Positions 11,026-36,706 are shown, counted from the stretch's first letter. The stretch is DNA of 64,000 nucleotides from Candidatus Edwardsbacteria bacterium (GCA_018821925.1 JAHJLF010000043.1:1599-65598), one strand, 5' to 3'. Notes: a model not told the origin generated them from the letters alone. Program-made: numbers and translations.

Positions 11026-11043
11026 AGAGGGTGAAATAGCTTA

Positions 11044-11125
11044 TTAAAATAATTGACAAGGCTCCATCAGTTATGTAAAATACTCAAATGAAGTTTTATT
11101 ACTACTCCAGGATTGGCGTTGGAAA
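11044..11125 (+). repeat. Left copy of an ~80 bp imperfect direct repeat flanking the AT-rich gene cassette
   Basis: ~80% identical to 11821-11902. Shared core 'CAGTTATGTAAAATAC'. Confidence 0.55.
11053..11081 (+). promoter_or_regulatory. Near-consensus sigma70-type promoter (TTGACA-17 nt-TAAAAT) upstream of the AT-rich cassette gene
   Basis: TTGACA at 11053-11058, 17-nt spacer, TAAAAT at 11076-11081. Lies within the first copy of an ~80 bp direct repeat. Confidence 0.5.
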
Positions 11126-11297
11126 TATCATTACGATGGCAAACCATTTGGTGCAAGGGGTTGCGCTGGAATGCAAGGCTATACAAATAGTTGGAATCTT
11201 TGCCATGGATTAATTAGAATAGGATCAAATATTCCTTTATTTGTCAGACCTTTTATTTTCCCTAACAATAATAAATAAAAGAAGAGGTGTCTTCGAA

Positions 11298-11786
11298 ATG
11301 AGAAAACATTTTCAAATTATTTGTATGTTGTTTATTTGCTGTTACTTTTATTCAACCGCAAATGCTAATATGATTAAAGAATTAAAAGATATTACACAAT
11401 TTATTTATGTAATTCAAAATATTGCAATGCATGATAGCGCCTGTACAATAAAGAATTTAAATTATTTGTTTGGACCACATAACGAATATGAAATAGATGC
11501 ATTGGATGATAGTTTAAATGTTAAAGAGATAAATAAAAGAATATCGAATCCAAAATGCAAATCGGTATATCTTTTGAATTTTAAAAAACATTATTGGAAT
11601 ATAATCAATCCGAGTGAGTTAGTATGGACCAAAATGGAGCGAGAAGTCGGTTCTGTTGTTTTCTATACAATAACGTTTATTAACCAAAAAAGGCAGACTG
11701 TTAAATATGTTATTGGTAAAGAACCTGTCGATGGTTATTATGTTCTAAGTCACCTATCATTAAATGATAAGGAATTATTAGAATGA
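11298..11786 (+). CDS. Hypothetical secreted or membrane-anchored protein in an AT-rich cassette
   Basis: ORF in a ~30% GC segment. Start chosen at ATG 11298 (MRKHFQIICMLFICCYFYSTANA, signal-peptide-like) with an upstream GAGG. The ORF track extends it to 11241. No family recognised. Confidence 0.4.
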   Translation: MRKHFQIICMLFICCYFYSTANANMIKELKDITQFIYVIQNIAMHDSACTIKNLNYLFGPHNEYEIDALDDSLNVKEINKRISNPKCKSVYLLNFKKHYWNIINPSELVWTKMEREVGSVVFYTITFINQKRQTVKYVIGKEPVDGYYVLSHLSLNDKELLE

Positions 11787-11820
11787 GCAGTATAACAATG
11801 CAACATCCAGGCGGGTGCTT

Positions 11821-11902
11821 TAAAACAATCGACAAAGATTTGACAGTTATGTAAAATACACAAACGAAGTATTATTAGTAAACCACAGGAACCAACGCGG
11901 CA
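11821..11902 (+). repeat. Right copy of the ~80 bp imperfect direct repeat flanking the AT-rich gene cassette
   Basis: Aligns with 11044-11125 (TTAAAAYAATYGACAA...CAGTTATGTAAAATACWCAAAYGAAGTWTTATTA...). Confidence 0.55.
11829..11857 (+). promoter_or_regulatory. Sigma70-type promoter (TCGACA-17 nt-TAAAAT), second copy of the repeated promoter module, upstream of deoC
   Basis: Homologous position in the second ~80 bp repeat. -35 has one mismatch. Confidence 0.4.
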
Positions 11903-12108
11903 TTGCCCTACATAGCGTTATACGCTTGGGGTTTATTATTTTCCATTATTTTGCAAAGACCGCTTGACATAATAGGGACATATATTGTATACCGCTATTG
12001 CATAAATAATTATTAAATTATTCGTGAAGCATAGCAACCCACACACAATTGATTACACAGTGATGAAGAATAGGTGCATGACCCATTAAAAAAACAGAGA
12101 GGGTAATA

Positions 12109-12885
12109 ATGGAAACTTTGATTGAACAGATCAAACAGAAACTGAAGAACTCCGGGGTCCCCGCCGATTGCGAAAGGCCCCTCTCCGGTGTCTGGAAATC
12201 TGTCAAGGACGAGATCGCCGGGGCACAGAAGGTAACGGACTCCAAAGAACTGGCCGCCCATATTGACCATACATTGCTCAAACCGGAGGCCGACAGACAG
12301 GGCATCATAGACCTATGCCGCCAGGCGGCCGAAAACGAATTCTGCTCGGTGTGTATCAATCCATATTGGCTGCCGCTGGCCAAAGAAAATCTCAGGGGCA
12401 GCGCCGTAAAATTATGCACGGTGTGCGGCTTTCCGTTGGGGGCGGACGATCCGGCACTGAAGTCGGACGAGGCCCGAAAATCCGTTGAGCAGGGGGCCGA
12501 CGAGGTGGACATGGTGATCAATATCGGTGCGTTGCGTTCCGGTCTTTACCGTGAAGTCTTCGACGACATCGCCGGGGTGGTGAAAGCGGCCGGGGGCAAA
12601 ACAGTGAAAGTGATCATCGAGACCTGCCTGCTGACCCAGGAGCAGAAGATAGAGGCCTGCCTGATCGCCCGGGGGGCCGGGGCGCATTTTGTGAAGACCT
12701 CCACCGGGTTCTCTTCCGGTGGGGCCACGATCGAGGATATAACATTGATGCGGCAAACGGTGGGACCGGATCTGGGGGTAAAGGCCTCCGGCGGGGTGAA
12801 GACCGCCGAGGATGCTATGGCCATGATAAAAGCCGGGGCCAACCGGATCGGGACATCATCAGGAGTGAAAATTATTGGTAAATAG
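12109..12885 (+). CDS. deoC: Deoxyribose-phosphate aldolase
   Basis: 258 aa. 'IDHTLLKPEA', 'CVNPYW', 'KLCTVCGFPLGA', 'VKASGGV' (Schiff-base Lys region) typical of DeoC. AGAGAGGG RBS. Confidence 0.85.
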   Translation: METLIEQIKQKLKNSGVPADCERPLSGVWKSVKDEIAGAQKVTDSKELAAHIDHTLLKPEADRQGIIDLCRQAAENEFCSVCINPYWLPLAKENLRGSAVKLCTVCGFPLGADDPALKSDEARKSVEQGADEVDMVINIGALRSGLYREVFDDIAGVVKAAGGKTVKVIIETCLLTQEQKIEACLIARGAGAHFVKTSTGFSSGGATIEDITLMRQTVGPDLGVKASGGVKTAEDAMAMIKAGANRIGTSSGVKIIGK

Positions 12886-22474: not shown

Positions 22475-23254
22475 ATGCTTCCTACCATTTTTAAAATAGG
22501 CCCCTTTACCCTGCACAGCTACGGCTTGATGCTGGCATTGGCATTCCTGTCGGCCATCCTGCTGCTGGAGGCCAAAGCCAAAAGATCCGGCCTGTCCAAG
22601 GATGTGATCATGGATTTCGGGCTGGTGGTGATGGTGGCCTCTGTTATCGGCTCCCGGGCCTTCTATGTTTTAAGCCATTGGGTCGAATATGCGGCCCGGC
22701 CCTTGACGGTGCTGGCGGTGTGGGAGGGCGGGCTTACTTTCTATGGAGGTGTTCTGCTGGCGGTCCCTGCCGGGATCATCTATCTCAAGAGAAAAGGCAT
22801 TGCCTTTTGGCCGCTGGCCGATATGGCGGCCCCGGCCTTTGCCCTGGGCCTGGGCATCGGGCGTTTCGGTTGTTTTTTGAACGGGTGCTGTTTCGGGAAT
22901 CCGTCGTTCCTGCCCTGGGCGGTTAAGTTTCCTGGTGATACCGCCGCCGGAGCGGCCTTCACCTGCGCCCTGCATCCCACCCAGCTTTACGAGGCAATCT
23001 TCGGTTTTCTCGCCATGGCCTTTTTGCTGTGGCTGGGAAAAATAAAACATTTCCCCGGGGCGATGTTCTGCCTGTTTCTGGGGATGTACGGCGTTTGGCG
23101 TTTTGGGCTGGATCATTTTCGGTACTACGAAGCCAGCCAGCTGTGGCTCTTTGGGCTTACCAATAATCAATGGATAAGCCTGGGGCTGATCGTTTTTGCC
23201 CTGGTTTCGTCATTGATCCTCTGGAAGAATAATAAAAGGCAAAAAAGCAAGTAA
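22475..23254 (+). CDS. lgt: Prolipoprotein diacylglyceryl transferase
   Basis: 259 aa. 'FKIGPFTLHSYGLMLALAF' N-terminus and 'GRFGCFLNGCCFG' signature of Lgt. Confidence 0.85.
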   Translation: MLPTIFKIGPFTLHSYGLMLALAFLSAILLLEAKAKRSGLSKDVIMDFGLVVMVASVIGSRAFYVLSHWVEYAARPLTVLAVWEGGLTFYGGVLLAVPAGIIYLKRKGIAFWPLADMAAPAFALGLGIGRFGCFLNGCCFGNPSFLPWAVKFPGDTAAGAAFTCALHPTQLYEAIFGFLAMAFLLWLGKIKHFPGAMFCLFLGMYGVWRFGLDHFRYYEASQLWLFGLTNNQWISLGLIVFALVSSLILWKNNKRQKSK

Positions 23255-23301: not shown

Positions 23302-23377
23302 GCCGCTGTAGCTCAGTTGGTAGAGCGACGCTCTCGTAAAGCGTAGGTCACCGGTTCGATTCCGGTCAGCGGCTCCA
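23302..23377 (+). tRNA. tRNA-Thr (anticodon CGU)
   Basis: 76 nt cloverleaf folded by hand: acceptor GCCGCTG/CAGCGGC, D-arm GCTC-AGTTGGTA-GAGC, anticodon stem ACGCT/AGCGT with loop CTCGTAA (anticodon CGT), T-arm ACCGG-TTCGATT-CCGGT, encoded CCA. Confidence 0.85.
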
Positions 23378-23457
23378 GAGATGGGGTTAATGGGACGCAG
23401 ATTTACGCAGATTGTTTTGCTTGGTGAGCAAATGTTGTTGCTTTCGTCATCCTGAGT

Positions 23458-24435
23458 ATGACTATCTACCCAACAAGCCGAAGGATCTTTTTAACCACAA
23501 AGAACGCAGAGTCAACTAACAAAACGCAATCAATTTTTCTTAACTTTACTACAATGAAAAAAGTACTTACAAATACATTTTCCAACTATAAAAAAGACGC
23601 TTCCAACTGGATAACACTGGCTGGTGGCGAATATTACCCAGATATTTTAAAAGACGCTTGTCAGCTTTACAAACCTGTTTTAGTTTTATTCGGTCAACTT
23701 GTAAAATCTTCTGAATCATCTTCCCGACTTTTTCTTGAAATTGCCGATGTTGTCGAACCTTGGATGAGAGTTCAATTACTAAGAGTTTTCAAACGATATG
23801 TTTGCCCTGTTCTTCCTGTTGAAATGACAAAACGAAAAACAAAAGCAACAATGTTTGATAGAGAATTTAAAAGCAAATTCAGACCAATCAACGAAGTTCA
23901 AAGAGCATTTAACAGCCGACCAATTAAAGACGAAGCGCTTTGTGCCTTGCTTTGGGAATACAAGGACAGGGGTAAAAAGGGATACGATTTAACCGAAAGA
24001 TTTTTCGAATTATTCCGCAGCAATTTCAGAGGGCTTCAAATTATTGGACCCGAACGGGCAGGCAGAGATATTTTGATGAAGGAAGTTTTTGAAAGCTATC
24101 CCAACCCAACACGACCTGTTGATTTTGTAATTAAGGATAAGAATAAAATTCTTGCAATAGGTTTGGCAAGATATGATTCAGACCGGGGCGGTGCACAAGA
24201 AGACGACAGAACCGGCGGATATTCAAATTGTGCAAACGAATTTCTTGGATTCGCCAAGAAAAATAAATTAAACACCAAATTAATTTTTGTAAACGATGGG
24301 CCAGGACTTTTGCTCGGTTCAATGTGGAATGACTATTCAGCTTTAGAAAAAAGCTGGAAAGGGAAAATAATGGTGTTGACTCTGAGAATGGTGGCTGAGA
24401 GAATCACCGAAGAATGGTTAAACTCAAAATTGTAA
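23458..24435 (+). CDS. Hypothetical protein, candidate restriction endonuclease partner of the downstream DNA methyltransferase
   Basis: 325 aa ORF in a low-GC (~38%) segment directly 3' of the tRNA. 5-nt gap to the methyltransferase gene. No family recognised. Alternative start ATG 23554 (MKKVL...). Confidence 0.35.
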   Translation: MTIYPTSRRIFLTTKNAESTNKTQSIFLNFTTMKKVLTNTFSNYKKDASNWITLAGGEYYPDILKDACQLYKPVLVLFGQLVKSSESSSRLFLEIADVVEPWMRVQLLRVFKRYVCPVLPVEMTKRKTKATMFDREFKSKFRPINEVQRAFNSRPIKDEALCALLWEYKDRGKKGYDLTERFFELFRSNFRGLQIIGPERAGRDILMKEVFESYPNPTRPVDFVIKDKNKILAIGLARYDSDRGGAQEDDRTGGYSNCANEFLGFAKKNKLNTKLIFVNDGPGLLLGSMWNDYSALEKSWKGKIMVLTLRMVAERITEEWLNSKL

Positions 24436-24439
24436 CAAA

Positions 24440-25783
24440 ATGGCAACAGGCAACCCAAAAACAAAATGGAATGGAGAGTTGCACACAAGCAACTCCAACA
24501 ACGAACAGTTTTCATTTCGCCCTGTTTGGCAAAATGGAAATTCTGCAAACCGTTTGTATTTTGGCGACAATGTTTCAGTAATGAAGGATTTGGTGAAAGA
24601 CAAAACGGTGAAAGGAGAAATCCGCCTCATATACATTGACCCGCCTTACGCTACCAACAGCGTTTTTCAAACACGAAAACAAAAAGACGCTTACACCGAC
24701 CTGTTGACAGGTGAACACTATATTGAGTTTATGCGTGAACGATTGTTGCTGATGAAGGAATTATTGGCGACGGATGGTTCAATTTATGTTCATCTTGACA
24801 ACAAAATGGTTTTCCATGTAAAAGTTTTGATGGACGAAATTTTTGGTGCTGCAAATTTTCGCAGCATGATTACAAGGAAAAAGTGCAAGTCAAAGAACTT
24901 TACAAAAAATTCCTTTGGAAATATTTGTGATTACATTTTGTTTTATACAAAATCCGCTAACGCAGTTTGGCACAAGCAATTTAATGAATGGACTGACGAG
25001 AAAATTCTGATCGAGTATCCGCTCATTGAGAAAGAAACTGGCAGACGGCACAAGCGAGTACCTATTCATGCCCCCGGAACAAGAAACGGAACTACAGGAA
25101 AGATGTGGAAAGGAATGATGCCGCCTGAAGGTAAACATTGGCAATTCACACCCGACAAGTTGGACGAGTTGGACCGAAAAGGTGAACTCCACTGGAGTAA
25201 AAATGGCAACCCAAGACGCAAAATTTATTTAGACGAAAGCAACGGAATCGCTTTGCAAGATATTTGGCTTGACTACTTAGATGCAAATAATCAAAACACT
25301 CAAACCACAGGTTATCCGACAGAAAAAAATATTGAGATGTTGAAACGAATCATTCTTGCTTCTTCAAATAAAGGAGATCTGGTTATGGACTGTTTTGCGG
25401 GTTCCGGAACAACTTTGGTTGCAGCAGACGAACTTCACCGTAACTGGATTGGCGTTGACATCGGCAGCGAATCAATGAAAGTAATTTTGAATCGTTTCCA
25501 AAATGGAACTCAAACTTTAGACGACCACATCAATGACGAGAAACCAAAAACCAAATCAAAGAAGATTGATTTGTTTTCTGACCAAGAGGAAGAAGAAAAG
25601 CTACCTCAACAATCAAAAAAAGTGCAGCAACATTTAGTAAGCGACTTTTCAATTTTAGTGAACGGAAATTATTCAGGGATAGAGTTTCAAGTGCCAACGC
25701 AGTTGAACTCACATTTTGCTCTGCCCAACGCAAAGGCAAACACCGCAAAGCAAAAAAAGCCTGCACTGAGCCCAGCACCTTGA
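24440..25783 (+). CDS. Site-specific DNA methyltransferase (N6-adenine/N4-cytosine, beta-class)
   Basis: 447 aa. Motif IV 'IYIDPPYAT' precedes motif I 'DCFAGSGTT' (beta-class order). Low-GC. Confidence 0.8.
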   Translation: MATGNPKTKWNGELHTSNSNNEQFSFRPVWQNGNSANRLYFGDNVSVMKDLVKDKTVKGEIRLIYIDPPYATNSVFQTRKQKDAYTDLLTGEHYIEFMRERLLLMKELLATDGSIYVHLDNKMVFHVKVLMDEIFGAANFRSMITRKKCKSKNFTKNSFGNICDYILFYTKSANAVWHKQFNEWTDEKILIEYPLIEKETGRRHKRVPIHAPGTRNGTTGKMWKGMMPPEGKHWQFTPDKLDELDRKGELHWSKNGNPRRKIYLDESNGIALQDIWLDYLDANNQNTQTTGYPTEKNIEMLKRIILASSNKGDLVMDCFAGSGTTLVAADELHRNWIGVDIGSESMKVILNRFQNGTQTLDDHINDEKPKTKSKKIDLFSDQEEEEKLPQQSKKVQQHLVSDFSILVNGNYSGIEFQVPTQLNSHFALPNAKANTAKQKKPALSPAP

Positions 25784-25812
25784 ATGGCTGTCGGAGTGAA
25801 GCAATCCCGGTT

Positions 25813-25863
25813 GTCATTCCCGCCCCGCATCAAGTGCGGGATAAACTCCGGCGGGAATCCAGG
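25813..25863. repeat. REP/MITE-like nested hairpin repeat (same family as 13757-13966)
   Basis: GTCATTCCCGCC-[CCGCATCAAGTGCGG]-ATAAACTCC-GGCGGGAATCCAGG. Outer arms ATTCCCGCC/GGCGGGAAT enclose an inner 6-bp hairpin. Confidence 0.6.
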
Positions 25864-25963
25864 CTTAATGGGACACGGACGCCGTCGTCCAAAGCCGTCT
25901 TTTATAGTAGCAGACTATGGCGCCGGACGATTTACACGGATTATTTCAAAGCATTTATAAAAG

Positions 25964-28774
25964 ATGACCAAACAGGAAGCCAAACAACAGATACAAAAGC
26001 TGGTTGAAAAGTACCAGCGGATAGCGGAAGCGGGGAAGGTGAAAACCTACAACGAGGCCCAAACCCGCAACGAATTTATTGAACCGCTGTTTAGCTTCTT
26101 GGGCTGGGACATGCGGAACCTGTCAACCGATAATGAGGTGACCACCGAGGAAAATGTCTCCGGCGGCAGGGTTGATTTGGCTTTCCGTTTCAATAATATT
26201 CCGGTGATGTTTCTGGAAGCCAAGGCCATGAAGGTTGACCTGGACGAGTGGAAATGGGCCGAGCAGGCCATAAACTACAGTTGGAATAAAAGCGTTACTT
26301 GGGCGGTGCTGACCGATTTTGAAAGCATCAAGGTATTCAACGCCGAAATACCGCCTAAAAGCATTTCGCAAAACCTGTTCATTGAATTAAAGTGCGCTGA
26401 TTTTGTCGCCCGGTTTGACCAGTTGTGGCTGCTGTCCAAGGAAAGCTTTGAAACCAAACTGTTGGACAAGGAAGCGGTAAAGTGGGGCAAGCTTACCCAG
26501 CGCAAACAGGTGGGGGTAAAGCTTTTCGAGGACCTGATGTCCTGGCGCATCCTGCTGACCAAGGAGTTCAAAAAGCAGAACGACCTTAGTCAGGAGGAAT
26601 TGGACGAGGGCGTTCAGAGGGTGCTTGACAGGCTTATCTTCATCCGCACCGCCGAGGATCGGGAAATAGAGCAAAACGTTCTGATGGGCATTTTGCGAAG
26701 CGGGAAAGCCGGGCTTTACCGCCAGTTGGCAAAAGAGTTCCGGGATTTTGACGATGGCTTTAATTCCAAGCTGTTCGCACCGCACTACTGCGAAGAATGG
26801 AAAGCAGATGATAAGGTCATCGCCGAGGTCATAAGCGGCATCTACGAAACAAGAGACGGCTACCGATACGATTTTTCGGCCATCTCCTCCGATGTGCTGG
26901 GCGGAATTTACGAGCAGTATCTGGGTTATGTCCAGGGACGGAAAAGCGAAGAGAAGCAGAAATCCCAAAGAAAAGCCCAGGGCATATATTATACGCCGAA
27001 GTATATCGTTGATTACATTGTAAAAGAGGCGCTGGGCGAGGCGCTGAAAAACGCCAAACCCAAGGACATTTCCAAAATAAAGGTGCTGGACCCGGCCTGC
27101 GGCTCCGGCTCGTTCTTGACTGCGGCTTATGATGAGATTCTGGGGAAGGTGGCGAACCCCAATTTGTTTACCAAATTTGATATTTTGAAAGACAATATCT
27201 ACGGGGTTGACTTGGACGCCCAGGCGGTGGAGATAGCCCAACTGAATCTGTTGCTAAAGGTTTTAACCCAGAAGACCAAACTGCCATCGTTACAGCATAA
27301 TTTAAGTTCTGGCAATTCGCTGATTTCCGAAGGCGACCCAAAATACAAGCCGTTCAATTTTGAAACCGAATTCAAAGAAGTATCTGCACATGGTGGTTTT
27401 GATGTAATCATCGGTAACCCGCCATATATTAAGGAATATACAAACCGATCAGCTTTTGACGCCGTGCATGACAATCCTTATTACCAAGGTAAAATGGATA
27501 TTTGGACACTCTTTGCCTGTCGCGCTATAGATTTGCTAAAAGACGGCGGCTATTTCAGCTTCATTGCACCTAATAATTGGCTCACTAACGCCGGTGCGCG
27601 TATTTTTAGAAACAAGATTTTAACAGAAGGGCAGATTACAAAATTCATAGATTTTGGCGATTTTAAGGTTTTCAAAGATGCCGGTATACAAACGATGATT
27701 TTTGTGTTTCAGAAAGGGAAGCCAAAGAAAAGGTATCAGACATGTTATGCAAAAATTGTAGACAAAAATATTGGAGAAGGCGCAGTTAATTTATTGTTGC
27801 AGTCAAACCTTAAAGCAGGCAATAGTGGAATTACAAAATTTAACGCGACGATTAACCCAAGGCAACTTATAGATAAAAATATCGTATTTTCTAACCAGAC
27901 AAATGACGAAATATTGAATAAAATTGAAGCCAAGAAAAACTTTGAGCTTACTGAGAAAGAAGTGGCGCAGGGCATTGTTTATCCGCAAGATTTTTTAAAT
28001 AAAGCTAATCAAATCAAGTTGGGGGCTAATTTTATTGTCGGTGAAGGGATTTTTGGGTTAACAAACAAAGAAAAAGAAAATCTACATCTGACAAAAGAAG
28101 AGAAAAGTTTAATCAGACCGTATTTCACTACTGAACAGTTAGGCAGATATTATTCTAACCCCCAAAATACTCTTTGGCTTATTTATACGGATTCAAAGTT
28201 CAAAAACCCCCATGAAATGAAGCCATATCCAAACATAAAGGCTCACCTGGATAAGTTCAAAGGTGTAATTACATCAGACAACAAACCTTATGGCCTGCAC
28301 AGATCCCGAGACGAGAAATTTTTTGTGGGGGTGAAAATCATAGTGCAAAGGAAATGCACCAACAGACCAATTTTTACTTATACTGATTTTGATTGTTATG
28401 TTTCGGCCACTTTTTATGTCATAAAAACTATAAGATTAAACCAAATATATTTAACAGGCTTACTTAATTCAAGCTTGATGAAATACTGGCTTAAAAATAA
28501 AGGCAAAATGCAGGGAAGCAATTATCAAATTGATAAAGAGCCATTGTTGAATTTGCCGTTAATAAAACCCGACGAAAAGGCCCAAGAAAAAATCGCCTTA
28601 AGTGTTGATAAGATAATGAAACTGTATCAAGATTATCGTAAAACTTCGGCGAATACTGATAAATGGCATGCACTCAAAAATGATATAGAAAAACTTGATC
28701 ACGAAATTGACCATGCGGTTTATAAACTTTATGGCTTAACCGATGAAGAAATTAAAGCAATTGAAGGACAATAA
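25964..28774 (+). CDS. Type IIG restriction-modification enzyme (MmeI-like fused endonuclease-methyltransferase-TRD)
   Basis: 936 aa. N-terminal PD-(D/E)xK-like nuclease ('NEAQTRNEFIEPLF..LGWD', 'GGRVDLAF...FLEAKA'), gamma-class MTase motifs I 'LDPACGSGSFL' and IV 'IIGNPPY'. Long AT-rich C-terminal region consistent with a target-recognition domain. Confidence 0.75.
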   Translation: MTKQEAKQQIQKLVEKYQRIAEAGKVKTYNEAQTRNEFIEPLFSFLGWDMRNLSTDNEVTTEENVSGGRVDLAFRFNNIPVMFLEAKAMKVDLDEWKWAEQAINYSWNKSVTWAVLTDFESIKVFNAEIPPKSISQNLFIELKCADFVARFDQLWLLSKESFETKLLDKEAVKWGKLTQRKQVGVKLFEDLMSWRILLTKEFKKQNDLSQEELDEGVQRVLDRLIFIRTAEDREIEQNVLMGILRSGKAGLYRQLAKEFRDFDDGFNSKLFAPHYCEEWKADDKVIAEVISGIYETRDGYRYDFSAISSDVLGGIYEQYLGYVQGRKSEEKQKSQRKAQGIYYTPKYIVDYIVKEALGEALKNAKPKDISKIKVLDPACGSGSFLTAAYDEILGKVANPNLFTKFDILKDNIYGVDLDAQAVEIAQLNLLLKVLTQKTKLPSLQHNLSSGNSLISEGDPKYKPFNFETEFKEVSAHGGFDVIIGNPPYIKEYTNRSAFDAVHDNPYYQGKMDIWTLFACRAIDLLKDGGYFSFIAPNNWLTNAGARIFRNKILTEGQITKFIDFGDFKVFKDAGIQTMIFVFQKGKPKKRYQTCYAKIVDKNIGEGAVNLLLQSNLKAGNSGITKFNATINPRQLIDKNIVFSNQTNDEILNKIEAKKNFELTEKEVAQGIVYPQDFLNKANQIKLGANFIVGEGIFGLTNKEKENLHLTKEEKSLIRPYFTTEQLGRYYSNPQNTLWLIYTDSKFKNPHEMKPYPNIKAHLDKFKGVITSDNKPYGLHRSRDEKFFVGVKIIVQRKCTNRPIFTYTDFDCYVSATFYVIKTIRLNQIYLTGLLNSSLMKYWLKNKGKMQGSNYQIDKEPLLNLPLIKPDEKAQEKIALSVDKIMKLYQDYRKTSANTDKWHALKNDIEKLDHEIDHAVYKLYGLTDEEIKAIEGQ

Positions 28775-28778
28775 AACC

Positions 28779-28805
28779 AAGGTGCGGGTTATACGCACCT
28801 TTCAG
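28779..28805 (+). terminator. Weak stem-loop (possible terminator) after the type IIG gene
   Basis: AAGGTGCG-GGTTATA-CGCACCTT hairpin, but only 2-3 trailing T. Confidence 0.3.
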
Positions 28806-28873
28806 CCAAAACTAAAATATACGCAATTTGTAAATTCAATAGTTAGCCGCAACGCCACGACTAATGTGACCAT

Positions 28874-29869
28874 ATGATGACGAATGATCCAATAGGTTCT
28901 GTTGAGTATGCCAGCAGTCTTCTGAGGCCCATTCGGCTCTCTTTTGATATTCTTTTTGATGACGACACGATTCATTATTGTCTATTTGATCTTCCTATGG
29001 CTGAACAACCTTGGTATGGTTATCATCAGTCCAAGTTATACGGTTCCGGGATGCTTCCCCTTTCAGATGTCGCAGGCAAAGAGAACGCCACACCAGAGGC
29101 TGTGGCTGAGGCGCTATGCCGAGAAATCGGAATCACCAAGTCTTTCACAATTGGCAATGTTCGAAGAAACTACGTCGATCTTCACATACCAGAATTTGTT
29201 AGACGTAGTCTCATCCGTCCAAATCATCCCGTCGAATCTCCATCCGCTCAACGTGCAAGAGCGTACATCCTGTTCGCAGACCTCCGTGGATTTTCTACGT
29301 GGTCGCTTTCAGTTAATCCCGAACAGGTTACGCGGATCTTCGAGGTAATTTCTGAACGTGTCGTCCAAATGCTCATTGACTATCACTATGATTACTGGAA
29401 GTTGCTTGGCGATGGCATTATGTTGGTTTGGGAAGTAACCGATGATGAAACAACCACGGCTGATAATGCCATTGGAGCAGCTTTCGAGTTGCACAAGAAG
29501 TACTGGTACTATTGGAAAGAAGATGAGGCTCACCTGCCAGAAGGTTTCGGCATAGCAATCTGTGGTGGAGATGTCGTCAAATACGCATCAGCGACCTTTT
29601 TCGAGTCAGTAGTAATCACGGACTATCTCGGACCCGTTGTGAACCTTGCCGCGAGGCTTCAATCTATAGCGAAAGCTGGTCAAGTTCTGGTCAACAAACA
29701 AGTGAGCAAGAAATCAAGGTTTAACGGGTACTCTTTTGAAAACGTATCTGACCGTCTGAAAAATGAACTTGATAACTTAAAGGGGATTCCAGATTCGGAA
29801 CGAGTCATTTTTCAAGTTATTCATAAGTACTTTGGCCCAGATTGGCTGAACTTCTGCCATACACGATAA
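28874..29869 (+). CDS. Stand-alone class III nucleotidyl (adenylyl/guanylyl-type) cyclase-domain protein with unrecognised ~135 aa N-terminal domain
   Basis: 331 aa. C-terminal ~190 aa carry cyclase motifs: metal-binding Asp blocks 'ILFADLRGFSTWS' and 'KLLGDGIMLVWEV', 'GIAICGGDVV', and the transition-state Asn/Arg motif 'VNLAARLQ'. Confidence 0.6.
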   Translation: MMTNDPIGSVEYASSLLRPIRLSFDILFDDDTIHYCLFDLPMAEQPWYGYHQSKLYGSGMLPLSDVAGKENATPEAVAEALCREIGITKSFTIGNVRRNYVDLHIPEFVRRSLIRPNHPVESPSAQRARAYILFADLRGFSTWSLSVNPEQVTRIFEVISERVVQMLIDYHYDYWKLLGDGIMLVWEVTDDETTTADNAIGAAFELHKKYWYYWKEDEAHLPEGFGIAICGGDVVKYASATFFESVVITDYLGPVVNLAARLQSIAKAGQVLVNKQVSKKSRFNGYSFENVSDRLKNELDNLKGIPDSERVIFQVIHKYFGPDWLNFCHTR

Positions 29870-30071
29870 CGTGGCGCTGCGGCCAACACACCGCACCACG
29901 ACGCACCCCCATTTGAAATGGATTAAAGTGGACGCCCAATGGTTTTTGGTGCGGTTTGATAAGCGCAGTGTGTCGGAGCTATTTTTTGTAGCACCAAAAC
30001 CCACTGCGTGGTGTGGTGAGACGTTGGGCAAGGCTAAAATAAACCAACACTTAACAAAAGGAGTTAATAAA

Positions 30072-30725
30072 ATGAAAAAGTGCTTCTTAGCCACAATCAT
30101 TTTTCTTTTGCCTTTAGTGCTTCACGCCGATACATTATTTCTATCAAATGGGAAGTCTTACGAGGGTACGGTAACTAAATGGGATGCAGGTAAAATTAGT
30201 TTTGTTATGAAAGACGCGCCGCTATCTTCAGCCTGGGAAGTGCCATCTGAAAGGATCGATAAAATTGTTATTGATGACGGTGCCACGTATTTGCCTTTTA
30301 ATAAGTATTGGTTGAACCAAAACGACACAATTTATGCCGCCAAACTTAAAGAAGTATTATCGAGACCATCTGACAATATTACTGCGGAAGATTTAAAATT
30401 GCTCGCGTTATTGAAATGCTATCGCGGTGCGGAGGTGGTAAATATTTCTTCTGCTCAAACTACTCACCCCGCCGAAATAAAGACGATAACCTCTATTCCG
30501 TCTTCAATAAAAAAAGACAAAGCGCCTTATGTGTTTGTAAGCGCCGTTTCTTTAATCCTTGCTTATGATTTCTTTTCGGATGCGGGCGATCTTAGAGATG
30601 GAGCTAATTCTTTGCCGGATGGGGAAGATAAAGATAGATTAACCTCGGAAGCGACTGGCCATACTGTGCGTGGGGTTCTTACGCTTGCTATAGGTATCTT
30701 ATCTTTTATTGTTGCCCAACAGTAG
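30072..30725 (+). CDS. Hypothetical secreted protein with C-terminal membrane segments
   Basis: 217 aa from ATG 30072 preceded by AAGGAG. N-terminal signal peptide 'MKKCFLATIIFLLPLVLHA'. Hydrophobic C-terminus ('YVFVSAVSLILAYDFF...VLTLAIGILSFIVA'). The track ORF starts at 29871 but lacks an RBS. Confidence 0.4.
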   Translation: MKKCFLATIIFLLPLVLHADTLFLSNGKSYEGTVTKWDAGKISFVMKDAPLSSAWEVPSERIDKIVIDDGATYLPFNKYWLNQNDTIYAAKLKEVLSRPSDNITAEDLKLLALLKCYRGAEVVNISSAQTTHPAEIKTITSIPSSIKKDKAPYVFVSAVSLILAYDFFSDAGDLRDGANSLPDGEDKDRLTSEATGHTVRGVLTLAIGILSFIVAQQ

Positions 30726-30744
30726 TATAATTGCAAACGCGGCC

Positions 30745-30945
30745 CCACTAAACAAAACAAAATCATTTAACTTCAGGAAATATATCGTGTCTTCTCACGA
30801 TAAATTGATGATCAGCGTGGCCGGGATCCGGGGCGTGGTCGGAACCAGCCTGACCCCCGAGCTGGCCCTGAAATTCGCCGCGGCCTTCGGCACCTTCGTC
30901 GGAGGCGGCCCGGTGGCGCTGGCGCGCGATTCCCGCACCGCAAAC
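30745..30945 (+). repeat. Upstream copy of a ~200 bp direct repeat (glmM promoter-proximal region plus first ~50 codons)
   Basis: Near-identical to 32850-33056 from 'AAATCAT..ATCATTTAACTT' through 'GGCACCTTCGTCGG'. Similarity decays after ~30945. Confidence 0.6.
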
Positions 30946-30993
30946 CCGCCGCCCGTTAGGCGCAATTGCACCCGGACGAATGTAAATGAATAA
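30787..30993 (+). pseudogene. Truncated duplicate of the 5' end of glmM (phosphoglucosamine mutase)
   Basis: ~160 nt nearly identical to 32898-33056 (encoding 'SSHDKLMISVAGIRGVVGTSLTPELALKFAAAFGTFVG') plus ~45 nt of matching upstream sequence. Frame diverges and stops after ~67 codons. Confidence 0.5.
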
Positions 30994-32707
30994 AAATACC
31001 CTCACAAAATACCCACGCATAGTCAACCTTCTCATGGGAACAGCATTTATTTTTTTAGTGGCAACTATCGCCCATTTTCTTTTTTCACATCTTGGTTTCA
31101 ATCCCACCGACGACGGTTTCATTTTAGCGGGAAGCAGGCGAATATTAGACGGTCAAATCCCTCATCGTGACTTTATATCAATTCGTCCTGCGGGTTCCCA
31201 TTTTCTTCACATACCATTTGTTCTCTTTGGGGGCGATTATGTCTTTCTGGTCTCTCGATATTTTGTATGGATTCAATTTGCTTCTATCGCGTGGATATGG
31301 ACTGTTGTTACAGCCCGGGCCTTTAAAATTTTCTCCAATTGGGTGGAGAAGTTCGCTATTGCGCTGGTTGTGTTCTCTTTCTCGGCCCATTATTCCCCTA
31401 TCATGGCATGGCACACTATTGATGCTTTATTTCTGACTTCGGTAGGCATAATATTATGTCATAAGCAATCCTGGTTGGCGAAACTGTTTGGTTACATATT
31501 TATAGGTATGGCACCGTTGTGTAGACTGAACTTTTTACCAATGATTCCCGTGGTGATCTTGCTCTTAAACGACCGGCGACAAAAGCGTTTTTGGCTTACA
31601 GGAAGCATTCCACTGGCAGTTTACGCGGTTTATTTGGTAATCAATGGAGCGGCATCGGATGCGATTCTGCAATTAAGCGCCTATACAAATGTATTATCTG
31701 TGGGTGTAATGAGCTATGTGAAAACCTGGACTGTACCGTGGGGAATATTGACCGGCGCCTTGGCAGCAAGTATGGCATACAATGCTCTCGATTTTAAGCG
31801 CCTATCAAATACCGCCACTTGGCTAAGACTGCTTGGGCGTTTGATATTGTTTGGAATCCCTTTGGCAGCAGCTTGGTCTTTAGCCGGCGGAAGATATCTT
31901 TGGGGAGCATCTTTTGGTATTTTCGGCGCTGTTGTTGGAGCAACAATATATTTTATCGCTAAAGAGCAGAAACTATCACGGCATATAAGATGTGGATTGC
32001 TAATTATTTGCCTTGCTTGGTGCACATCCATCTCCTTAGGATATCCCACCCCTGCTTTGGCCACAGGTCCCTTGATTCTATTTCTAATAGCATGCGGGCA
32101 GTCCTCTTATCGGGTACCAAGTGGAGACAAAGTTTCCGGCAAATCTAAATGTTCGCTCATTTATCGGTTTCTTCACCCCGAAGGTTTGCGAAAGCTCGTC
32201 AATGTTCAAGTAATTTTATTAGCAATAATAAGCCTGGCGGCGTTTGGGATAGCGAGAGAAAATTATATCTACAGAGAACAGTCGGCATCCAACCTAAACC
32301 AAAATCTGGATGGCGTGCTCCCGGGAGCGAGGCTGATCAAAACGAACGGCAACACTTATAACTTTCTTATAGACTTGAAAGATGCCAAGGATATAGCGAA
32401 GAGCGAAGGGAAAAATTATTGTATCATCCCGGATGTGGCTGCTAATTGGGTAAGAAGTTCACAATGTAATCCATTATCTATTGACTGGCCACAAAGTACG
32501 GAATTGGGGAAGCAAGAATTGACAGACCGCGTCATAAGGGACATGGAAGCATATCGGGGAAGAACCATTATCATTGTACAAAAGTATGAAGCTTATTCAT
32601 TGGCTTCAGGTTTTATTCCGCTATCCGATTCATATATAGTTGTTCACTTCGTACGGTCAAATTTTAGTAAGACAGGGGAAACCAAGTTTTTTGAATTGTA
32701 TGAATAG
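30986..32707 (+). CDS. Polytopic membrane protein, GT-C-fold glycosyltransferase-like
   Basis: 573 aa, ~10 predicted TM helices. Acidic first-loop motif 'NPTDDGFILAGSRRILDGQ'. C-terminal ~190 aa soluble domain. Lower GC than flanks. Assignment by architecture only. Confidence 0.4.
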   Translation: MNKNTLTKYPRIVNLLMGTAFIFLVATIAHFLFSHLGFNPTDDGFILAGSRRILDGQIPHRDFISIRPAGSHFLHIPFVLFGGDYVFLVSRYFVWIQFASIAWIWTVVTARAFKIFSNWVEKFAIALVVFSFSAHYSPIMAWHTIDALFLTSVGIILCHKQSWLAKLFGYIFIGMAPLCRLNFLPMIPVVILLLNDRRQKRFWLTGSIPLAVYAVYLVINGAASDAILQLSAYTNVLSVGVMSYVKTWTVPWGILTGALAASMAYNALDFKRLSNTATWLRLLGRLILFGIPLAAAWSLAGGRYLWGASFGIFGAVVGATIYFIAKEQKLSRHIRCGLLIICLAWCTSISLGYPTPALATGPLILFLIACGQSSYRVPSGDKVSGKSKCSLIYRFLHPEGLRKLVNVQVILLAIISLAAFGIARENYIYREQSASNLNQNLDGVLPGARLIKTNGNTYNFLIDLKDAKDIAKSEGKNYCIIPDVAANWVRSSQCNPLSIDWPQSTELGKQELTDRVIRDMEAYRGRTIIIVQKYEAYSLASGFIPLSDSYIVVHFVRSNFSKTGETKFFELYE

Positions 32708-32897
32708 ATTCATACCTATGCTTTATTTAGAGTCTGTAACTTCATATAACGCGGACTATAAGGCTGCGCTACTTCTCGCCTTCGCCCAAATCCCTCGCTC
32801 CGTTCGGGACTACGTATGTCCGCAAACGTTAGTTGCCTTTAAAAACACAACTACACAAACAAAGAAATCATAATCATTTAACTTAAGGTAATATATT

Positions 32898-34253
32898 TTG
32901 TCTTCTCACGATAAATTGATGATCAGCGTGGCCGGGATCCGGGGGGTGGTGGGAACCAGCCTGACCCCCGAGCTGGCCCTGAAATTCGCCGCGGCCTTCG
33001 GCACCTTCGTCGGTGCCGGACCAGTGGTGCTGGGGCGCGACTCCCGCCTGTCCGGCCCGGTGATGGAAATGACGGTGGAGGCCGGTCTGCGCTCGGTGGG
33101 ATGCGAGGTCATCAAGATCGGCATCGTTCCCACCCCCACCGTCCAGCTGATGACCAGACTTTTAAAAGCCAGGGGGGGCATCGCCATCACCGCCAGCCAT
33201 AACCCCTCCCAGTGGAACGCCCTGAAATTCGTCTCCGGCCAGGGGTTGTTTTTAGATAAAGGCCAGGGCGAAAAGGTCATTGCCATTTTCCATTCCGGCA
33301 AATTTGCCTATAAAAAATATGACCGGCTGGGGGGGGGCGGAGAATATCCCAACGCCATCAGTGATCATGTGGCCAGAATACTTAAATTGTCATTTCTGGA
33401 TATTCCGGCCATCAGAAGAAAAAAGTTCAAGGTAGTAGTGGACACCTGCCACGGGGCCGGCGGGCCGATATTCAGCCGGCTGCTTAAAGAATTGGGCTGC
33501 CGGGTCATCTCCTTGCACAACGAAACAAATGGAAAGTTCTCGCGGCCCATCGAGCCGCAGGCCAAGAATCTGGGCGAACTGGAGAAGGCTGTCATCGCTC
33601 ACCGGGCCGATATCGGCTTTGCCACCGACGCCGATGTGGACCGGCTGTCCCTGGTCTCCGATAAGGGCAAAGCGATAGGCGAGGAATATTCCCTGGCCCT
33701 GGCCGCCCGGTTCATGTTCTTGCATTTTAAAACCAAGGCCGTCACCAATCTCTCCACCAGCCGGATGGTAGACGAGGTGGCCGGCCAATTTAAAACCAGC
33801 GTCATCCGCACCCCGGTGGGCGAGGCCAACGTGGTCGGCGCCATGAAAAAGCACCGGGCTCTTATCGGCGGCGAGGGCAACGGTGGGATAATCATCCCCG
33901 AACTCAACTACGCCCGGGATGCCGCTGCCGGGATAGCCTTGATATTGCAGATGTTGACCGAAGAGAATCTTCCATTATCACAGATCGCCGAGAAAATGCC
34001 CAGATATCACATGATCAAAACCACCTTGACGATAAAGGATCCCAAAAGGTTTCTGGTCAAGACGACTAAAATATTCTCCAACTGCAAAACAGATAAAAGG
34101 GACGGCCTTAAATATATCTGGCCTGATGCCTGGGTACATATCAGGGCTTCCGGCACCGAGCCGATTGTGCGGGTGATCGCCGAAGCGCGGGAAGAGAAGA
34201 AGGCCAGAAAACTGGTGAATGATGTAACCCGGTTAATTAAAATTGACACTTAG
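32898..34253 (+). CDS. glmM: Phosphoglucosamine mutase (alpha-D-phosphohexomutase family)
   Basis: 451 aa. 'VAGIRGVVG' N-terminus, phosphoserine loop 'ITASHNPSQWNALKF', metal-binding 'FATDADVDR'. Two genes upstream of glmS. The track start is TTG 32898; ATG 32919 (MISVAGIRG) is an alternative. Confidence 0.75.
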   Translation: MSSHDKLMISVAGIRGVVGTSLTPELALKFAAAFGTFVGAGPVVLGRDSRLSGPVMEMTVEAGLRSVGCEVIKIGIVPTPTVQLMTRLLKARGGIAITASHNPSQWNALKFVSGQGLFLDKGQGEKVIAIFHSGKFAYKKYDRLGGGGEYPNAISDHVARILKLSFLDIPAIRRKKFKVVVDTCHGAGGPIFSRLLKELGCRVISLHNETNGKFSRPIEPQAKNLGELEKAVIAHRADIGFATDADVDRLSLVSDKGKAIGEEYSLALAARFMFLHFKTKAVTNLSTSRMVDEVAGQFKTSVIRTPVGEANVVGAMKKHRALIGGEGNGGIIIPELNYARDAAAGIALILQMLTEENLPLSQIAEKMPRYHMIKTTLTIKDPKRFLVKTTKIFSNCKTDKRDGLKYIWPDAWVHIRASGTEPIVRVIAEAREEKKARKLVNDVTRLIKIDT

Positions 34254-34319: not shown

Positions 34320-34760
34320 ATGAGGGTATTGAAGATCGCTGTATTTTTTATCGCAGCCTTTTTGATAGTTTCCTGTGGGCCCAAGAGCGAAAAGAAGCAA
34401 ACTCCGACCAAACAGCAGGTCGTTAAGGAAGCCCCGCTGCCCGATGGCTATCCAGCCGAGCTGGCTATTCCCGAAGGTTTTACCGCCAAAAATATCTCGG
34501 TGGGGAATGGGACTTCCTCAGGCGGCGGTCAGGGGGTAAGAACTTACGCCACCTATCGGATCGAAAAGTTGATGGCCGGGGAAAAAACCGCATTGGTGGA
34601 GCATTATAAAAAGATCCTGGCCGAAAACAACTGGAAGGGTGAAATGAAGACCCCGGAAGCGGGTTATGGATACGGCACTTTTGCCAAGGACAATATGGAG
34701 CTGGAACTGAAAATGAACGACGTGATGTTCGCTTTCAATCTTAAGGTATATAAAAATTAG
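34320..34760 (+). CDS. Hypothetical lipoprotein
   Basis: 146 aa. Signal peptide with lipobox 'LIVSCG'. Confidence 0.45.
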   Translation: MRVLKIAVFFIAAFLIVSCGPKSEKKQTPTKQQVVKEAPLPDGYPAELAIPEGFTAKNISVGNGTSSGGGQGVRTYATYRIEKLMAGEKTALVEHYKKILAENNWKGEMKTPEAGYGYGTFAKDNMELELKMNDVMFAFNLKVYKN

Positions 34761-34873: not shown

Positions 34874-36706
34874 ATGTGCGGAATAGTAGGCTATATCGGG
34901 GCCAAAAATTGCGTCCCCATTATCATGGAGGGCCTGAAGCGCCTGGAATACCGGGGCTACGATTCGGCCGGGCTGGCCTTGATCAAAGATGGGAAACTGG
35001 TCATCGAGAAAAGGGCCGGCAAGGTGGCCGATCTGGCCGCGATGATCGAAGGGAAGAAGCTTTCCGCCTCTTTGGGGATAGGGCACACCCGTTGGGCCAC
35101 CCACGGCGAGCCGGATGACCTGAATGCCCATCCCCACTGGGACTGCAAGGGCGAGATAGCCATCATCCATAACGGCATCATCGAGAACTATTCCACTTTA
35201 AAGAAAAAGCTGATCCAGGACAGCCATCAGATAAGAACCGCCACCGACACCGAGATACTGGCCCACCTGATCGAGGAGATGTATAAAAAGACCCAGGACC
35301 TGTTCTCCGCAGTCAGATACGCCCTGCTGGAGGTGGAGGGCACCTTCGGGCTTCTGGTGATATCGCCCCTGGAACCCGACAAGATCATCGCCGCCCGCCG
35401 CGGAAGCCCGCTGGTGATCGGGGTGGGGGAGGGTGAGAACCTGATAGCCTCCGACGCCGCCGCCCTGGTGGAGCACACCCGGCAGGTGGTCTATCTGAAC
35501 GACGACGAGATGGCCTGCATCACGGCCGATTCATTCTATACCAAGACCATCCATGACCAGGAGGTGGTCAAGCAGATAGAGGAGGTCACCTTCTCCCTGG
35601 AGCAGATAGAACGGGGCGGCTATGAGCATTTTATGCTCAAGGAGATAAACGAACAGCCGACCTCCCTGGAGAACGCCATGAGGGGCCGCCTGATGGTCAA
35701 AGAGGGCGACGTCCGGCTGGGCGGCCTGCATACGGTAATGGACAAACTTTTAAATGCCCGGCGGATAATCATCACCTCCTGCGGCACCTCCTGGCATGCC
35801 GCCCTGGTGGGCAAGTATATGCTGGAACAGCTGGGCCGCATCCCGGTGGATGTGGATTACGCTTCGGAGTTCCGATTTCGTAATCCGGTCATCCGGCCGG
35901 ATGATGTGGTGATGGTCATCAGCCAAAGCGGCGAGACCGCCGACACCCTGGCGGCCCTGCGGGAGGCCAAATCCAGAGGGGCCCCGGTGCTGGGGATCGT
36001 CAACGTGGTGGGCAGCACCATCGCCCGGGAGACCGACGCCGGGGTCTATATCCACGCCGGGCCGGAGATCGGGGTGGCCTCCACCAAGGCTTTCACCTCG
36101 CAGATCGCGGTGCTGGGCCAGATAGCCATCCTGTTGGCCAAGAACCGGGGCCTGCCGCAAAAGACCCTGGCCAAGATCGCCAGGGACCTGGCCGACATCC
36201 CCGACAAAGTCCGCCAGGTGCTTTTATTAGACGACCAGATCAAGAAAATAGCCCAAGAGTTTAAAAACGCCGAGAATTTTCTGTACCTGGGACGGGGCAG
36301 CAATTTCCCCACCGCCCTGGAGGGGGCCCTTAAATTGAAAGAGATCTCCTACATCCATGCCGAGGGCTATCCGGCCGCCGAGATGAAGCACGGGCCAATC
36401 GCCCTGATAGACAAGAACATGCCGGTGGTCTTCATCGTGCCCAAAGACGCCCTGTACGACAAGGTGGTCAGCAATATCCAGGAGGTGCGGGCCCGCAAGG
36501 GCCGGGTGATCGCTATCGCCAATATCGACGATGATGAGATAGATAGCCTGGCCGAGTTCGTGATAAAGGTCCCCAGGACCTACAGCTATTTCGGCCCCAT
36601 CATCAATAGCATCCCCCTGCAATTGCTGGCCTATCATATCGCCTTGCTTCGGGGCTGCAATGTGGACCAGCCTCGAAATTTGGCCAAAAGCGTGACCGTG
36701 GAATAA
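34874..36706 (+). CDS. glmS: Glutamine--fructose-6-phosphate aminotransferase (isomerising)
   Basis: 610 aa. 'MCGIVGYIG' N-terminal nucleophile Cys, two SIS domains, C-terminal 'VDQPRNLAKSVTVE'. Confidence 0.9.
   Translation: MCGIVGYIGAKNCVPIIMEGLKRLEYRGYDSAGLALIKDGKLVIEKRAGKVADLAAMIEGKKLSASLGIGHTRWATHGEPDDLNAHPHWDCKGEIAIIHNGIIENYSTLKKKLIQDSHQIRTATDTEILAHLIEEMYKKTQDLFSAVRYALLEVEGTFGLLVISPLEPDKIIAARRGSPLVIGVGEGENLIASDAAALVEHTRQVVYLNDDEMACITADSFYTKTIHDQEVVKQIEEVTFSLEQIERGGYEHFMLKEINEQPTSLENAMRGRLMVKEGDVRLGGLHTVMDKLLNARRIIITSCGTSWHAALVGKYMLEQLGRIPVDVDYASEFRFRNPVIRPDDVVMVISQSGETADTLAALREAKSRGAPVLGIVNVVGSTIARETDAGVYIHAGPEIGVASTKAFTSQIAVLGQIAILLAKNRGLPQKTLAKIARDLADIPDKVRQVLLLDDQIKKIAQEFKNAENFLYLGRGSNFPTALEGALKLKEISYIHAEGYPAAEMKHGPIALIDKNMPVVFIVPKDALYDKVVSNIQEVRARKGRVIAIANIDDDEIDSLAEFVIKVPRTYSYFGPIINSIPLQLLAYHIALLRGCNVDQPRNLAKSVTVE

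Follow-up and report, generated by a model that had tools for sequence, protein, structure and literature searches.

We analyzed a 64,000-nucleotide stretch of DNA from Candidatus Edwardsbacteria bacterium (GCA_018821925.1 JAHJLF010000043.1:1599-65598; hereafter the window) and find that the region between its tRNA-Thr gene and glmM is a horizontally acquired, compositionally foreign island. The island occupies a defence hotspot: two restriction-modification (R-M) systems lie next to each other in it, and the cargo at the site differs between relatives. Taken as a whole, the explanation we favor, and regard as probable, is that a composite island of mostly defence genes was acquired at a hotspot between lgt/tRNA-Thr and glmM, and that its entry was anchored in the conserved flanks. 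Our confidence is high for the acquisition of a composite island at a hotspot; for an integrase-independent, flank-anchored mechanism, which is proposed from scars in the sequence, we would put the chances at even or slightly below.

A composite foreign island between tRNA-Thr and glmM

The G+C content (GC) at 23378-32860 is 0.425, compared with a mean of 0.555 (s.d. 0.012, minimum 0.531, range about 53-58%) for the 143 other 9.5 kb windows, which places the island about 11 s.d. under that mean; along the sequence, GC drops from 0.55-0.65 in the flanks to 0.33-0.50 across approximately 23.3 to 32.9 kb. The same holds at third codon positions (GC3), where the six island genes have values of 0.33-0.49 and 38 other long open reading frames (ORFs) average 0.71 (Mann-Whitney p = 4e-6). 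An initial annotation of the window had described a low-GC island between tRNA-Thr and glmM that is composite, carries only accessory functions and has no visible integrase or transposase, and the present data agree with this description on every count. The cargo consists of a BstEII-like R-M pair, a type IIG R-M enzyme, a class III cyclase with a small secreted membrane protein, and a membrane protein of GT-C fold. Domain searches of ORFs of 80 aa or more, run on both strands, found no integrase or transposase domain, phage records gave no DNA match to the island, and DNA similarity to plasmids is confined to methylase cores.

The foreign DNA does not begin at the tRNA gene itself. Its left edge lies at about 23512, past a 134-nt module of host backbone that we term M(a), and its right edge lies at about 32860, at the onset of the glmM leader. 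Two further stretches inside the island are host backbone and not cargo, i.e., the remnant that contains a partial second copy of the module, M(b), and a copy of the glmM 5′ end, termed glmM′ (Table 1). These remnants divide the island into at least three foreign blocks: block 1 (23512-25780), the BstEII-family type II R-M pair; block 2 (25956-30749), the type IIG R-M enzyme, the class III cyclase and the small secreted membrane protein; and block 3 (30937-32860), the GT-C-fold glycosyltransferase, with copies of the glmM 5′ end on both sides.

Table 1 Features of the island and its immediate flanks (window coordinates)
Feature	Coordinates	Strand	Basis and remarks
lgt	22475-23254	+	Pfam LGT, E = 6e-63; last gene of the conserved left flank
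tRNA-Thr(CGU), intact	23302-23377	+	ARAGORN; Rfam tRNA, 74 bits; left landmark of the hotspot
Backbone module M(a)	23378-23511		77-80% identical to L005 9157-9280 and L006 79-226
Predicted BstEII-family type IIP restriction endonuclease	23554-24435	+	PDB 9ibq, E = 9e-80; GC3 0.33
Predicted cognate N6/N4 DNA methyltransferase	24440-25783	+	Pfam N6_N4_Mtase, E = 2e-49; PADLOC MTase_II, E = 3e-132
Backbone remnant between blocks 1 and 2	25781-25955		25856-25955 is 96% identical to L006 297-396; GC 0.53
Predicted type IIG single-chain R-M enzyme	25964-28774	+	Pfam HSDR_N_2, Eco57I, N6_Mtase, MmeI_Mtase, TaqI_C
Class III nucleotidyl cyclase, 331 aa	28874-29869	+	Pfam Guanylate_cyc, E = 1e-9; PDB adenylate cyclases, E = 2e-7
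Small secreted membrane protein, 217 aa	30072-30725	+	Translation, hydropathy; 284 aa from the first GTG
glmM′ remnant, left copy of the 187-nt direct repeat	30750-30936	+	Pfam PGM_PMM_I on the remnant ORF; GC 0.59
GT-C-fold membrane glycosyltransferase (by model), 573 aa	30986-32707	+	AlphaFold2 model, Foldseek
Right repeat copy (32861-33047) and intact glmM (32898-34253)	32861-34253	+	TIGR03990, Pfam PGM_PMM I-IV
glmS	34874-36706	+	Pfam SIS and GATase domains; syntenic in L005 and L006

Since the source is a metagenome assembly, an assembly or binning chimera in which foreign contigs were joined at repeats has to be considered. The 187-nt glmM repeat and hairpins resembling repetitive extragenic palindromic (REP) elements do break some assemblies: a Logan SRR10598174 contig covers the left part only, including the left junction, and ends at 25841, and another conspecific contig of 2056 nt holds the GT-C gene alone because assembly broke at the 187-nt repeat. 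The island is nevertheless 100% identical wherever it is covered in three assemblies, i.e., ERZ27247117 (ENA), GCA_018829145.1 and Logan SRR10598174, two of which span it whole and contiguously, one of them as a 741 kb contig (ENA ERZ27247117). This agreement makes misassembly unlikely, and we assign a chimera a negligible probability. All conspecific contigs are 100% identical to the island, which thus displays no within-species polymorphism.

The site in four relatives and the scars at block boundaries

Relatives were obtained by scanning genomes with GlmM, which returned L005 and L006, and with Lgt, which returned L024 and L025 (77-78% Lgt identity); a metagenome scan with the GlmM profile yielded just two short contigs. 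The closest view of a site without the island is given by L005, an uncultured metagenome-assembled genome with a GlmM 89-90% identical to that of the window and flanks of 83-89% nucleotide identity. Its gene order is mreBCD, PBP2, rodA, lgt, tRNA-Thr, about 0.9 kb, glmM, glmS and a cyclase-AAA16 gene, and there are no island genes in the lgt-glmM interval. The adjacency of lgt, tRNA-Thr and glmM in relatives, which the initial annotation had singled out for comparison, is therefore seen in L005 as a near-empty site. In L006 (Candidatus Edwardsbacteria DeMMO3_1), no island genes are present in the 975 nt 5′ of glmM, where the contig begins. The L005 site carries a small membrane ORF and L006 a different small ORF, neither of which is related to the other or to any part of the window.

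The two remaining relatives, which are more distant, have other fillings. In L024, lgt is followed by a REP-rich gap, a He_PIG protein, small ORFs and a low-GC type I R-M system. In L025, the tRNA-Thr gene is cut to its first 43 nt (5841-5883), with the junction in the anticodon loop, and is followed by more than 9 kb of low-GC DNA with genes for TetR, MlaD, PAP2, KAS III, MMPL and ArdC proteins. The ArdC antirestriction gene, together with the low-GC block, suggests a conjugative or mobilisable element. Five genomes thus have five different contents after lgt, and the site is therefore a lineage-wide hotspot.

In L024, the gap that follows lgt covers 1.5 kb (10763-12303) and is made up of long repeated units and REP-like hairpins, of which gtcattcccgtgcagaagggaatccag is an example. 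The window has a related repeat at 803-843, and its backbone remnants, like those of L005 and L006, contain similar GTCAT…ATCC hairpins.

Comparison with L006 resolves the boundary between blocks 1 and 2. L006 has, in order, M(a), a 70-nt spacer, a complete, diverged M(b), its small ORF and glmM, with no cargo between the two M copies. In the window, the BstEII R-M pair is inserted precisely between M(a) and the L006-type spacer; from the methylase stop codon onward the sequence again matches L006, apart from a 47-nt REP-like hairpin insertion, as far as 25955. Three parts accordingly make up the remnant: 25781-25808 is spacer, 25809-25855 is the hairpin insertion, and 25856-25955 is the 5′ portion of M(b). 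Where the type IIG gene begins, the window lacks the 3′ half of this module, which is kept in L006 and resembles the 3′ half of all other M copies. A deletion in L006 could not have recreated this half, and the polarity is therefore that of an insertion in the lineage of the window.

This polarity bears on the possibility that the clade had the low-GC genes from the start and that the relatives lost them by deletion. The relatives examined are just four, which leaves such a history some room. Set against it are the complete M(b) of L006, truncated in the window, a GC3 about 0.3 under that of core genes, the fact that the four relatives have four differing contents that are not subsets of that of the window, and the fact that, among the plasmids searched, the nearest homologues of the two R-M genes are on a Bacillota plasmid. 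We consider ancestral origin very improbable.

The duplicated module also accounts for an att-like repeat in the initial annotation (23384-23401 and 25862-25879). The repeat is real; it belongs to module M, however, whose copies in L006 stand 70 nt apart without cargo, so that it is not demonstrably the att site of an integrase. Nor does it make a convincing integron-like array without integrase, i.e., a cluster of attC sites lacking integrase (CALIN), with the M modules as recombination sites. In keeping with such an array, all cargo genes share one strand, and M(a) and M(b) bracket the first R-M pair. M occurs only twice in the window, though, and the other genes are not bounded by it; it has no conserved hairpin, secondary structure or covariation and matches no Rfam family; and the L006 copies lie side by side with no cassette. 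Furthermore, the cargo genes are long, with some intergenic gaps of 100-200 nt, and no inverted-repeat pairs were found at gene boundaries in a general repeat search, which used no attC-specific model. The probability that the island is a CALIN-like array is accordingly very small.

A stronger competitor is the classical tRNA-targeting island, or several in tandem, inserted by a tyrosine integrase at the tRNA-Thr 3′ end, with later decay of the integrase and the att repeats. Transfer RNA loci are common integration sites (PMC10121019), the cargo region of the window abuts the tRNA gene, and att-like scars are present at this same tRNA in three relatives. Besides the truncated gene of L025, these are found in L005 and L006. 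Downstream of the intact tRNA-Thr of L005 (9105-9168) come 52 nt that contain a hairpin, then a 12-nt repeat of the tRNA 3′ end (tcagcggctcca) and finally module M, an arrangement that resembles a scar left by earlier integration or excision. In L006 (1-92), there are at least two tandem 46-nt units at the contig edge, each with a hairpin and 14 nt identical to the tRNA-Thr 3′ end, which mimic the T-arm plus the acceptor 3′ strand; no intact tRNA was detected on this contig. The window itself differs. It contains neither an integrase nor a remnant of one, and the 3′ end of its tRNA-Thr(CGU), the sole tRNA of the 64 kb, was found only at the tRNA when GGTCAGCGGCTCCA was searched with up to two mismatches between 23 and 33 kb, with no second copy in the island or at its end. 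In addition, a module conserved among relatives occupies the 134 nt between the tRNA and the first cargo, stretches of backbone separate the blocks, and the rightmost block is bounded by glmM repeats and not by tRNA repeats. On balance, a classical origin appears unlikely for the island.

The right boundary provides an explicit scar for the flank-anchored entry that we prefer. Block 3 lies between two direct repeats of 187 nt (30750-30936 and 32861-33047) that are 91% identical, each of which contains about 37 nt of the glmM leader and the first 50 codons, and glmM orthologues are present in both L005 and L006. The coding parts of the copies are 92.2% identical to each other, and either copy is 92-93% identical to the L005 orthologue, with private substitutions in both. 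The initial annotation had described a glmM duplication, and the 187-nt repeat confirms it; a recent date does not fit, since the 8% divergence between the copies equals that between species. The duplication is therefore not a fresh intragenomic event, and the DNA came either from a related donor or in an old event. The arrangement is what would be left by a single crossover with a circle carrying a copy of the flank, or by homology-facilitated illegitimate recombination. The reading frame of the remnant (30787-30993) overlaps the start codon of the GT-C gene by 8 nt, and, given its position behind the displaced glmM leader, the GT-C gene is probably expressed from the old glmM signals.

Cargo genes and conserved flanks

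The first two genes of the island are predicted to form a BstEII-type R-M pair. The nuclease aligns with BstEII (PDB 9ibq) over residues 3-286 of 288; its longest ORF starts at 23458, inside M(a), and we took the start at 23554. Compared with the BstEII system of plasmid pBSO1 from Geobacillus stearothermophilus, the methyltransferase is 53% identical and the nuclease 49% identical over its full length, a level that does not guarantee the GGTNACC specificity. The two systems differ in layout: the genes of the window are in tandem, nuclease then methyltransferase, 4 nt apart, whereas those of pBSO1 are convergent, accompanied by a small helix-turn-helix gene, with insertion sequence elements on both sides. 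The best plasmid matches to the pair, within the collection searched, lay on this one Bacillota plasmid, and identities of about 50% for both genes indicate that the pair clearly travels between phyla.

Block 2 begins with a single-chain type IIG enzyme that matches PADLOC REase_MTase_IIG (E = 4e-112) as well as PDB entries. Judged from its domains (HSDR_N_2 at residues 31-132, Eco57I/N6_Mtase at 308-592 and TaqI_C at 779-866), it is predicted to combine a PD-(D/E)xK nuclease, a gamma-class N6-adenine methyltransferase and a TaqI_C-type specificity domain. GC breaks within the gene at about 27300: the stretch that encodes the nuclease and the beginning of the methylase has a GC of 0.495 and the C-terminal part one of 0.353, and this break suggests a mosaic gene, for instance one with a swapped specificity domain. 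We also considered whether the type IIG enzyme and the cyclase that follows it form a conserved module, as the same order occurs in L012; the type IIG enzymes of the two loci are just 24% identical across the methylase core, and the candidate was rejected.

The class III cyclase has an uncharacterised N-terminal domain of about 120 aa in front of its catalytic core. Its best match among the PADLOC models for PycC, the cyclase of Pycsar defence, is weak (E = 9e-12, 42.7 bits) and limited to the catalytic core, and generic class III cyclases match it about as well. Approximately 50 full-length homologues occur in variable contexts that are often defence-like. Next to five of the homologues are, respectively, a type IIG R-M enzyme with a 174-aa protein, toxin-antitoxin genes, proteins of 371 and 168 aa, a caspase-like peptidase, and small ORFs; none of these neighbours is related to another or to the ORF downstream of the island cyclase. 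The cyclase pair of the initial annotation is thus a class III cyclase followed by a small ORF, as described, and not a conserved two-gene unit; a Pycsar-like pairing of the two was rejected, as the neighbour is different in every context examined. The island cyclase resembles Pycsar in its weak PycC matches, its position in a defence island and the membrane protein next to it, and departs from it in that this neighbour is not conserved with the cyclase and has no detected cyclic-nucleotide-binding domain. Pycsar membership is therefore not supported; a role in signalling defence is plausible, and the cyclase may be a candidate nucleotide-signalling defence gene. More generally, the family of cyclases of about 330 aa with a private N-terminal domain could supply the sensor or the signal generator for a defence system that has yet to be described and whose partners would be interchangeable.

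In one lineage among the homologues (L017-L019; e.g., L018 1016-3092), the cyclase gene is found 32 nt 3′ of the gene for a protein with Peptidase_C14 (caspase-like) and Lcl_C matches; this arrangement may represent a cyclase-protease operon and a defence candidate.

The protein encoded after the island cyclase is more likely to have 217 aa than the 284 aa of the longer reading. The protein carries a signal peptide, and its C-terminal region contains at least one transmembrane helix, with a second read by eye. No family was found for it in Pfam, PADLOC or PHROGs, NCBIfam gave one weak hit below cutoff, and the cyclic-nucleotide-binding domain was sought in these same searches.

The 573-aa protein of block 3 is polytopic and has no Pfam match. 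Its AlphaFold2 model has a mean predicted local distance difference test score (pLDDT) of 92.5, and the 17 best hits in a Foldseek search of PDB folds are all of GT-C type (probability 0.97-1.0, TM-score 0.27-0.46), led by DPY19, STT3, ArnT, AglB, Emb, ALG9 and PimE. An NPTDDGF motif is conserved across 61 homologues, with Asp42 invariant, Asp43 nearly so and the rest near-invariant; according to the topology of the model, Asp42 would lie in the first extracytoplasmic loop. On the strength of the modelled fold, we assign the protein as a GT-C glycosyltransferase of an uncharacterised family, which probably modifies an envelope glycan. More than 230 homologues were found, none of them annotated, one being located among glycan-synthesis genes (GT4, Alg14/Alg13-like and NTP-transferase). 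Many homologues are on contigs of about 2 kb, which raised the possibility that the GT-C gene is a self-contained mobile unit targeting glmM; longer contexts have neither glmM nor common flanks, and this candidate was dismissed.

Outside the island, the left flank has the order mreB, mreC, mreD, PBP2, rodA, lgt, which is syntenic in L005, L024 and L025, and the conserved right flank starts with glmM. The GlmM protein matches the archaeal-type model TIGR03990 with 494 bits (E = 4e-148), compared with 243 bits, below cutoff, for the bacterial TIGR01455. Between glmM and glmS, a 146-aa ORF (34320-34760, GC 0.48) with a lipoprotein-like signal (…LIVSC) is present in the window and in L006 (2347-2787) and absent from L005, where the glmM-glmS gap is 200 nt; this gap is a second small variable spot within the core flank. 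Downstream of glmS, a 961-aa protein (36746-39631) has Guanylate_cyc matches in two stretches (best over residues 297-470) ahead of an AAA_16 ATPase domain, and is similar to kinase/cyclase fusions of thiazole/oxazole-modified microcin (TOMM) systems. It has host-like GC, is conserved in L005 and L006, and is a core gene unrelated to the island cyclase. Far to the left, a lone 181-aa ORF (11241-11786; GC 0.27, GC3 0.23) stands in surroundings of 0.55-0.6 GC, matches no family in Pfam or PHROGs and looks like a second, very small foreign insertion. Finally, the tRNA-Thr gene contains a GGTCACC (BstEII-type) site at 23346-23352.

How the island may have been assembled and what it means

The scars are consistent with stepwise accretion, in which the blocks would have arrived in separate events. 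In each event, recombination would have been anchored in the conserved flanks, one end being joined by homologous exchange and the other illegitimately; alternatively, a circle with a copy of the flank would have been inserted in a Campbell-type event. An integrase encoded by the island would have taken no part. The glmM′ remnant would be the scar of one such event, with DNA from a related donor or of old date, and the two R-M systems would restrict incoming DNA. A more far-reaching version is that the hotspot grows independently of integrases, each event leaving a diverged flank copy (glmM′ at the right end and, perhaps, the duplicated M modules at the left end), that the GT-C gene is translationally coupled to the old glmM leader, and that the cyclase belongs to a defence system with interchangeable partners; taken together, these propositions are speculative and we hold them to be doubtful.

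Several observations weigh against this account. The mechanism is read from scars alone, and no donor, intermediate or polymorphic strain was found. Integrase-type signatures are present at the same tRNA in L005, L006 and L025, so that entry by an integrase that was subsequently lost keeps some weight for some of the blocks. The hotspot comparison comprises the window and four relatives, and L024 and L025 are seen from the lgt side only, with glmM out of reach. GGTNACC sites are not avoided in the window (22 observed versus 11.9 expected from shuffles, i.e., about twice as common), and there is thus no footprint of long exposure to a BstEII-like enzyme.

Core defence hotspots flanked by tRNA or tmRNA genes have been published, some of them with no identifiable mode of mobilisation, and for those without integrases homologous recombination via conserved flanks has been proposed in Pseudomonas and noted for E. 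coli (PMC10250203, PMC10121019). The site described here shares with cDHS1 and cDHS2 of P. aeruginosa (PMC10250203) and with the E. coli hotspots (PMC10121019) a fixed position between core genes with an adjoining tRNA, variable contents rich in R-M and other defence genes, an additive composite structure, and occupied sites that in some cases have no identifiable mobility genes. It differs from them in that it belongs to an uncultured candidate phylum and is known from five genomes, compared with the hundreds to thousands surveyed there, in its explicit flank-copy scars (glmM′ and the duplicated M modules), and in the presence of a non-defence GT-C gene behind a displaced housekeeping leader. 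With classical tRNA islands, which are defined by a tyrosine integrase and a repeat of the tRNA 3′ end, it has in common the tRNA-adjacent position, foreign composition and accessory cargo; it lacks the integrase and the repeat, its cargo does not start at the tRNA end, and its internal boundaries are backbone remnants.

Both homology-facilitated illegitimate recombination and Campbell-type single-crossover insertion are established mechanisms for the acquisition of foreign DNA. The island conforms to them in having a foreign gene flanked by copies of one host segment that have diverged as if from a related donor. In contrast to those mechanisms, only the end product is available here, with no assignable microhomology at the illegitimate junction and no known donor.

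The island is thus a clear and fairly ordinary tRNA-flanked hotspot for defence and accessory genes, and current understanding is not overturned by it. Its value lies in providing a well-bounded defence hotspot in the barely studied Candidatus Edwardsbacteria, together with a near-empty reference site and several alternative fillings. Two uncharacterised families are brought to attention, i.e., the GT-C proteins with their more than 230 unannotated homologues and the compact class III cyclases that recur in defence-like neighbourhoods. The way in which integrase-less islands arise has been left open by the published work on hotspots, and the scars reported here, a glmM 5′ end diverged to the level of separate species and a truncated M(b), constitute direct sequence evidence on how such islands are built. 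If growth is indeed anchored in the flanks, new cargo would be placed under the control of displaced housekeeping signals.

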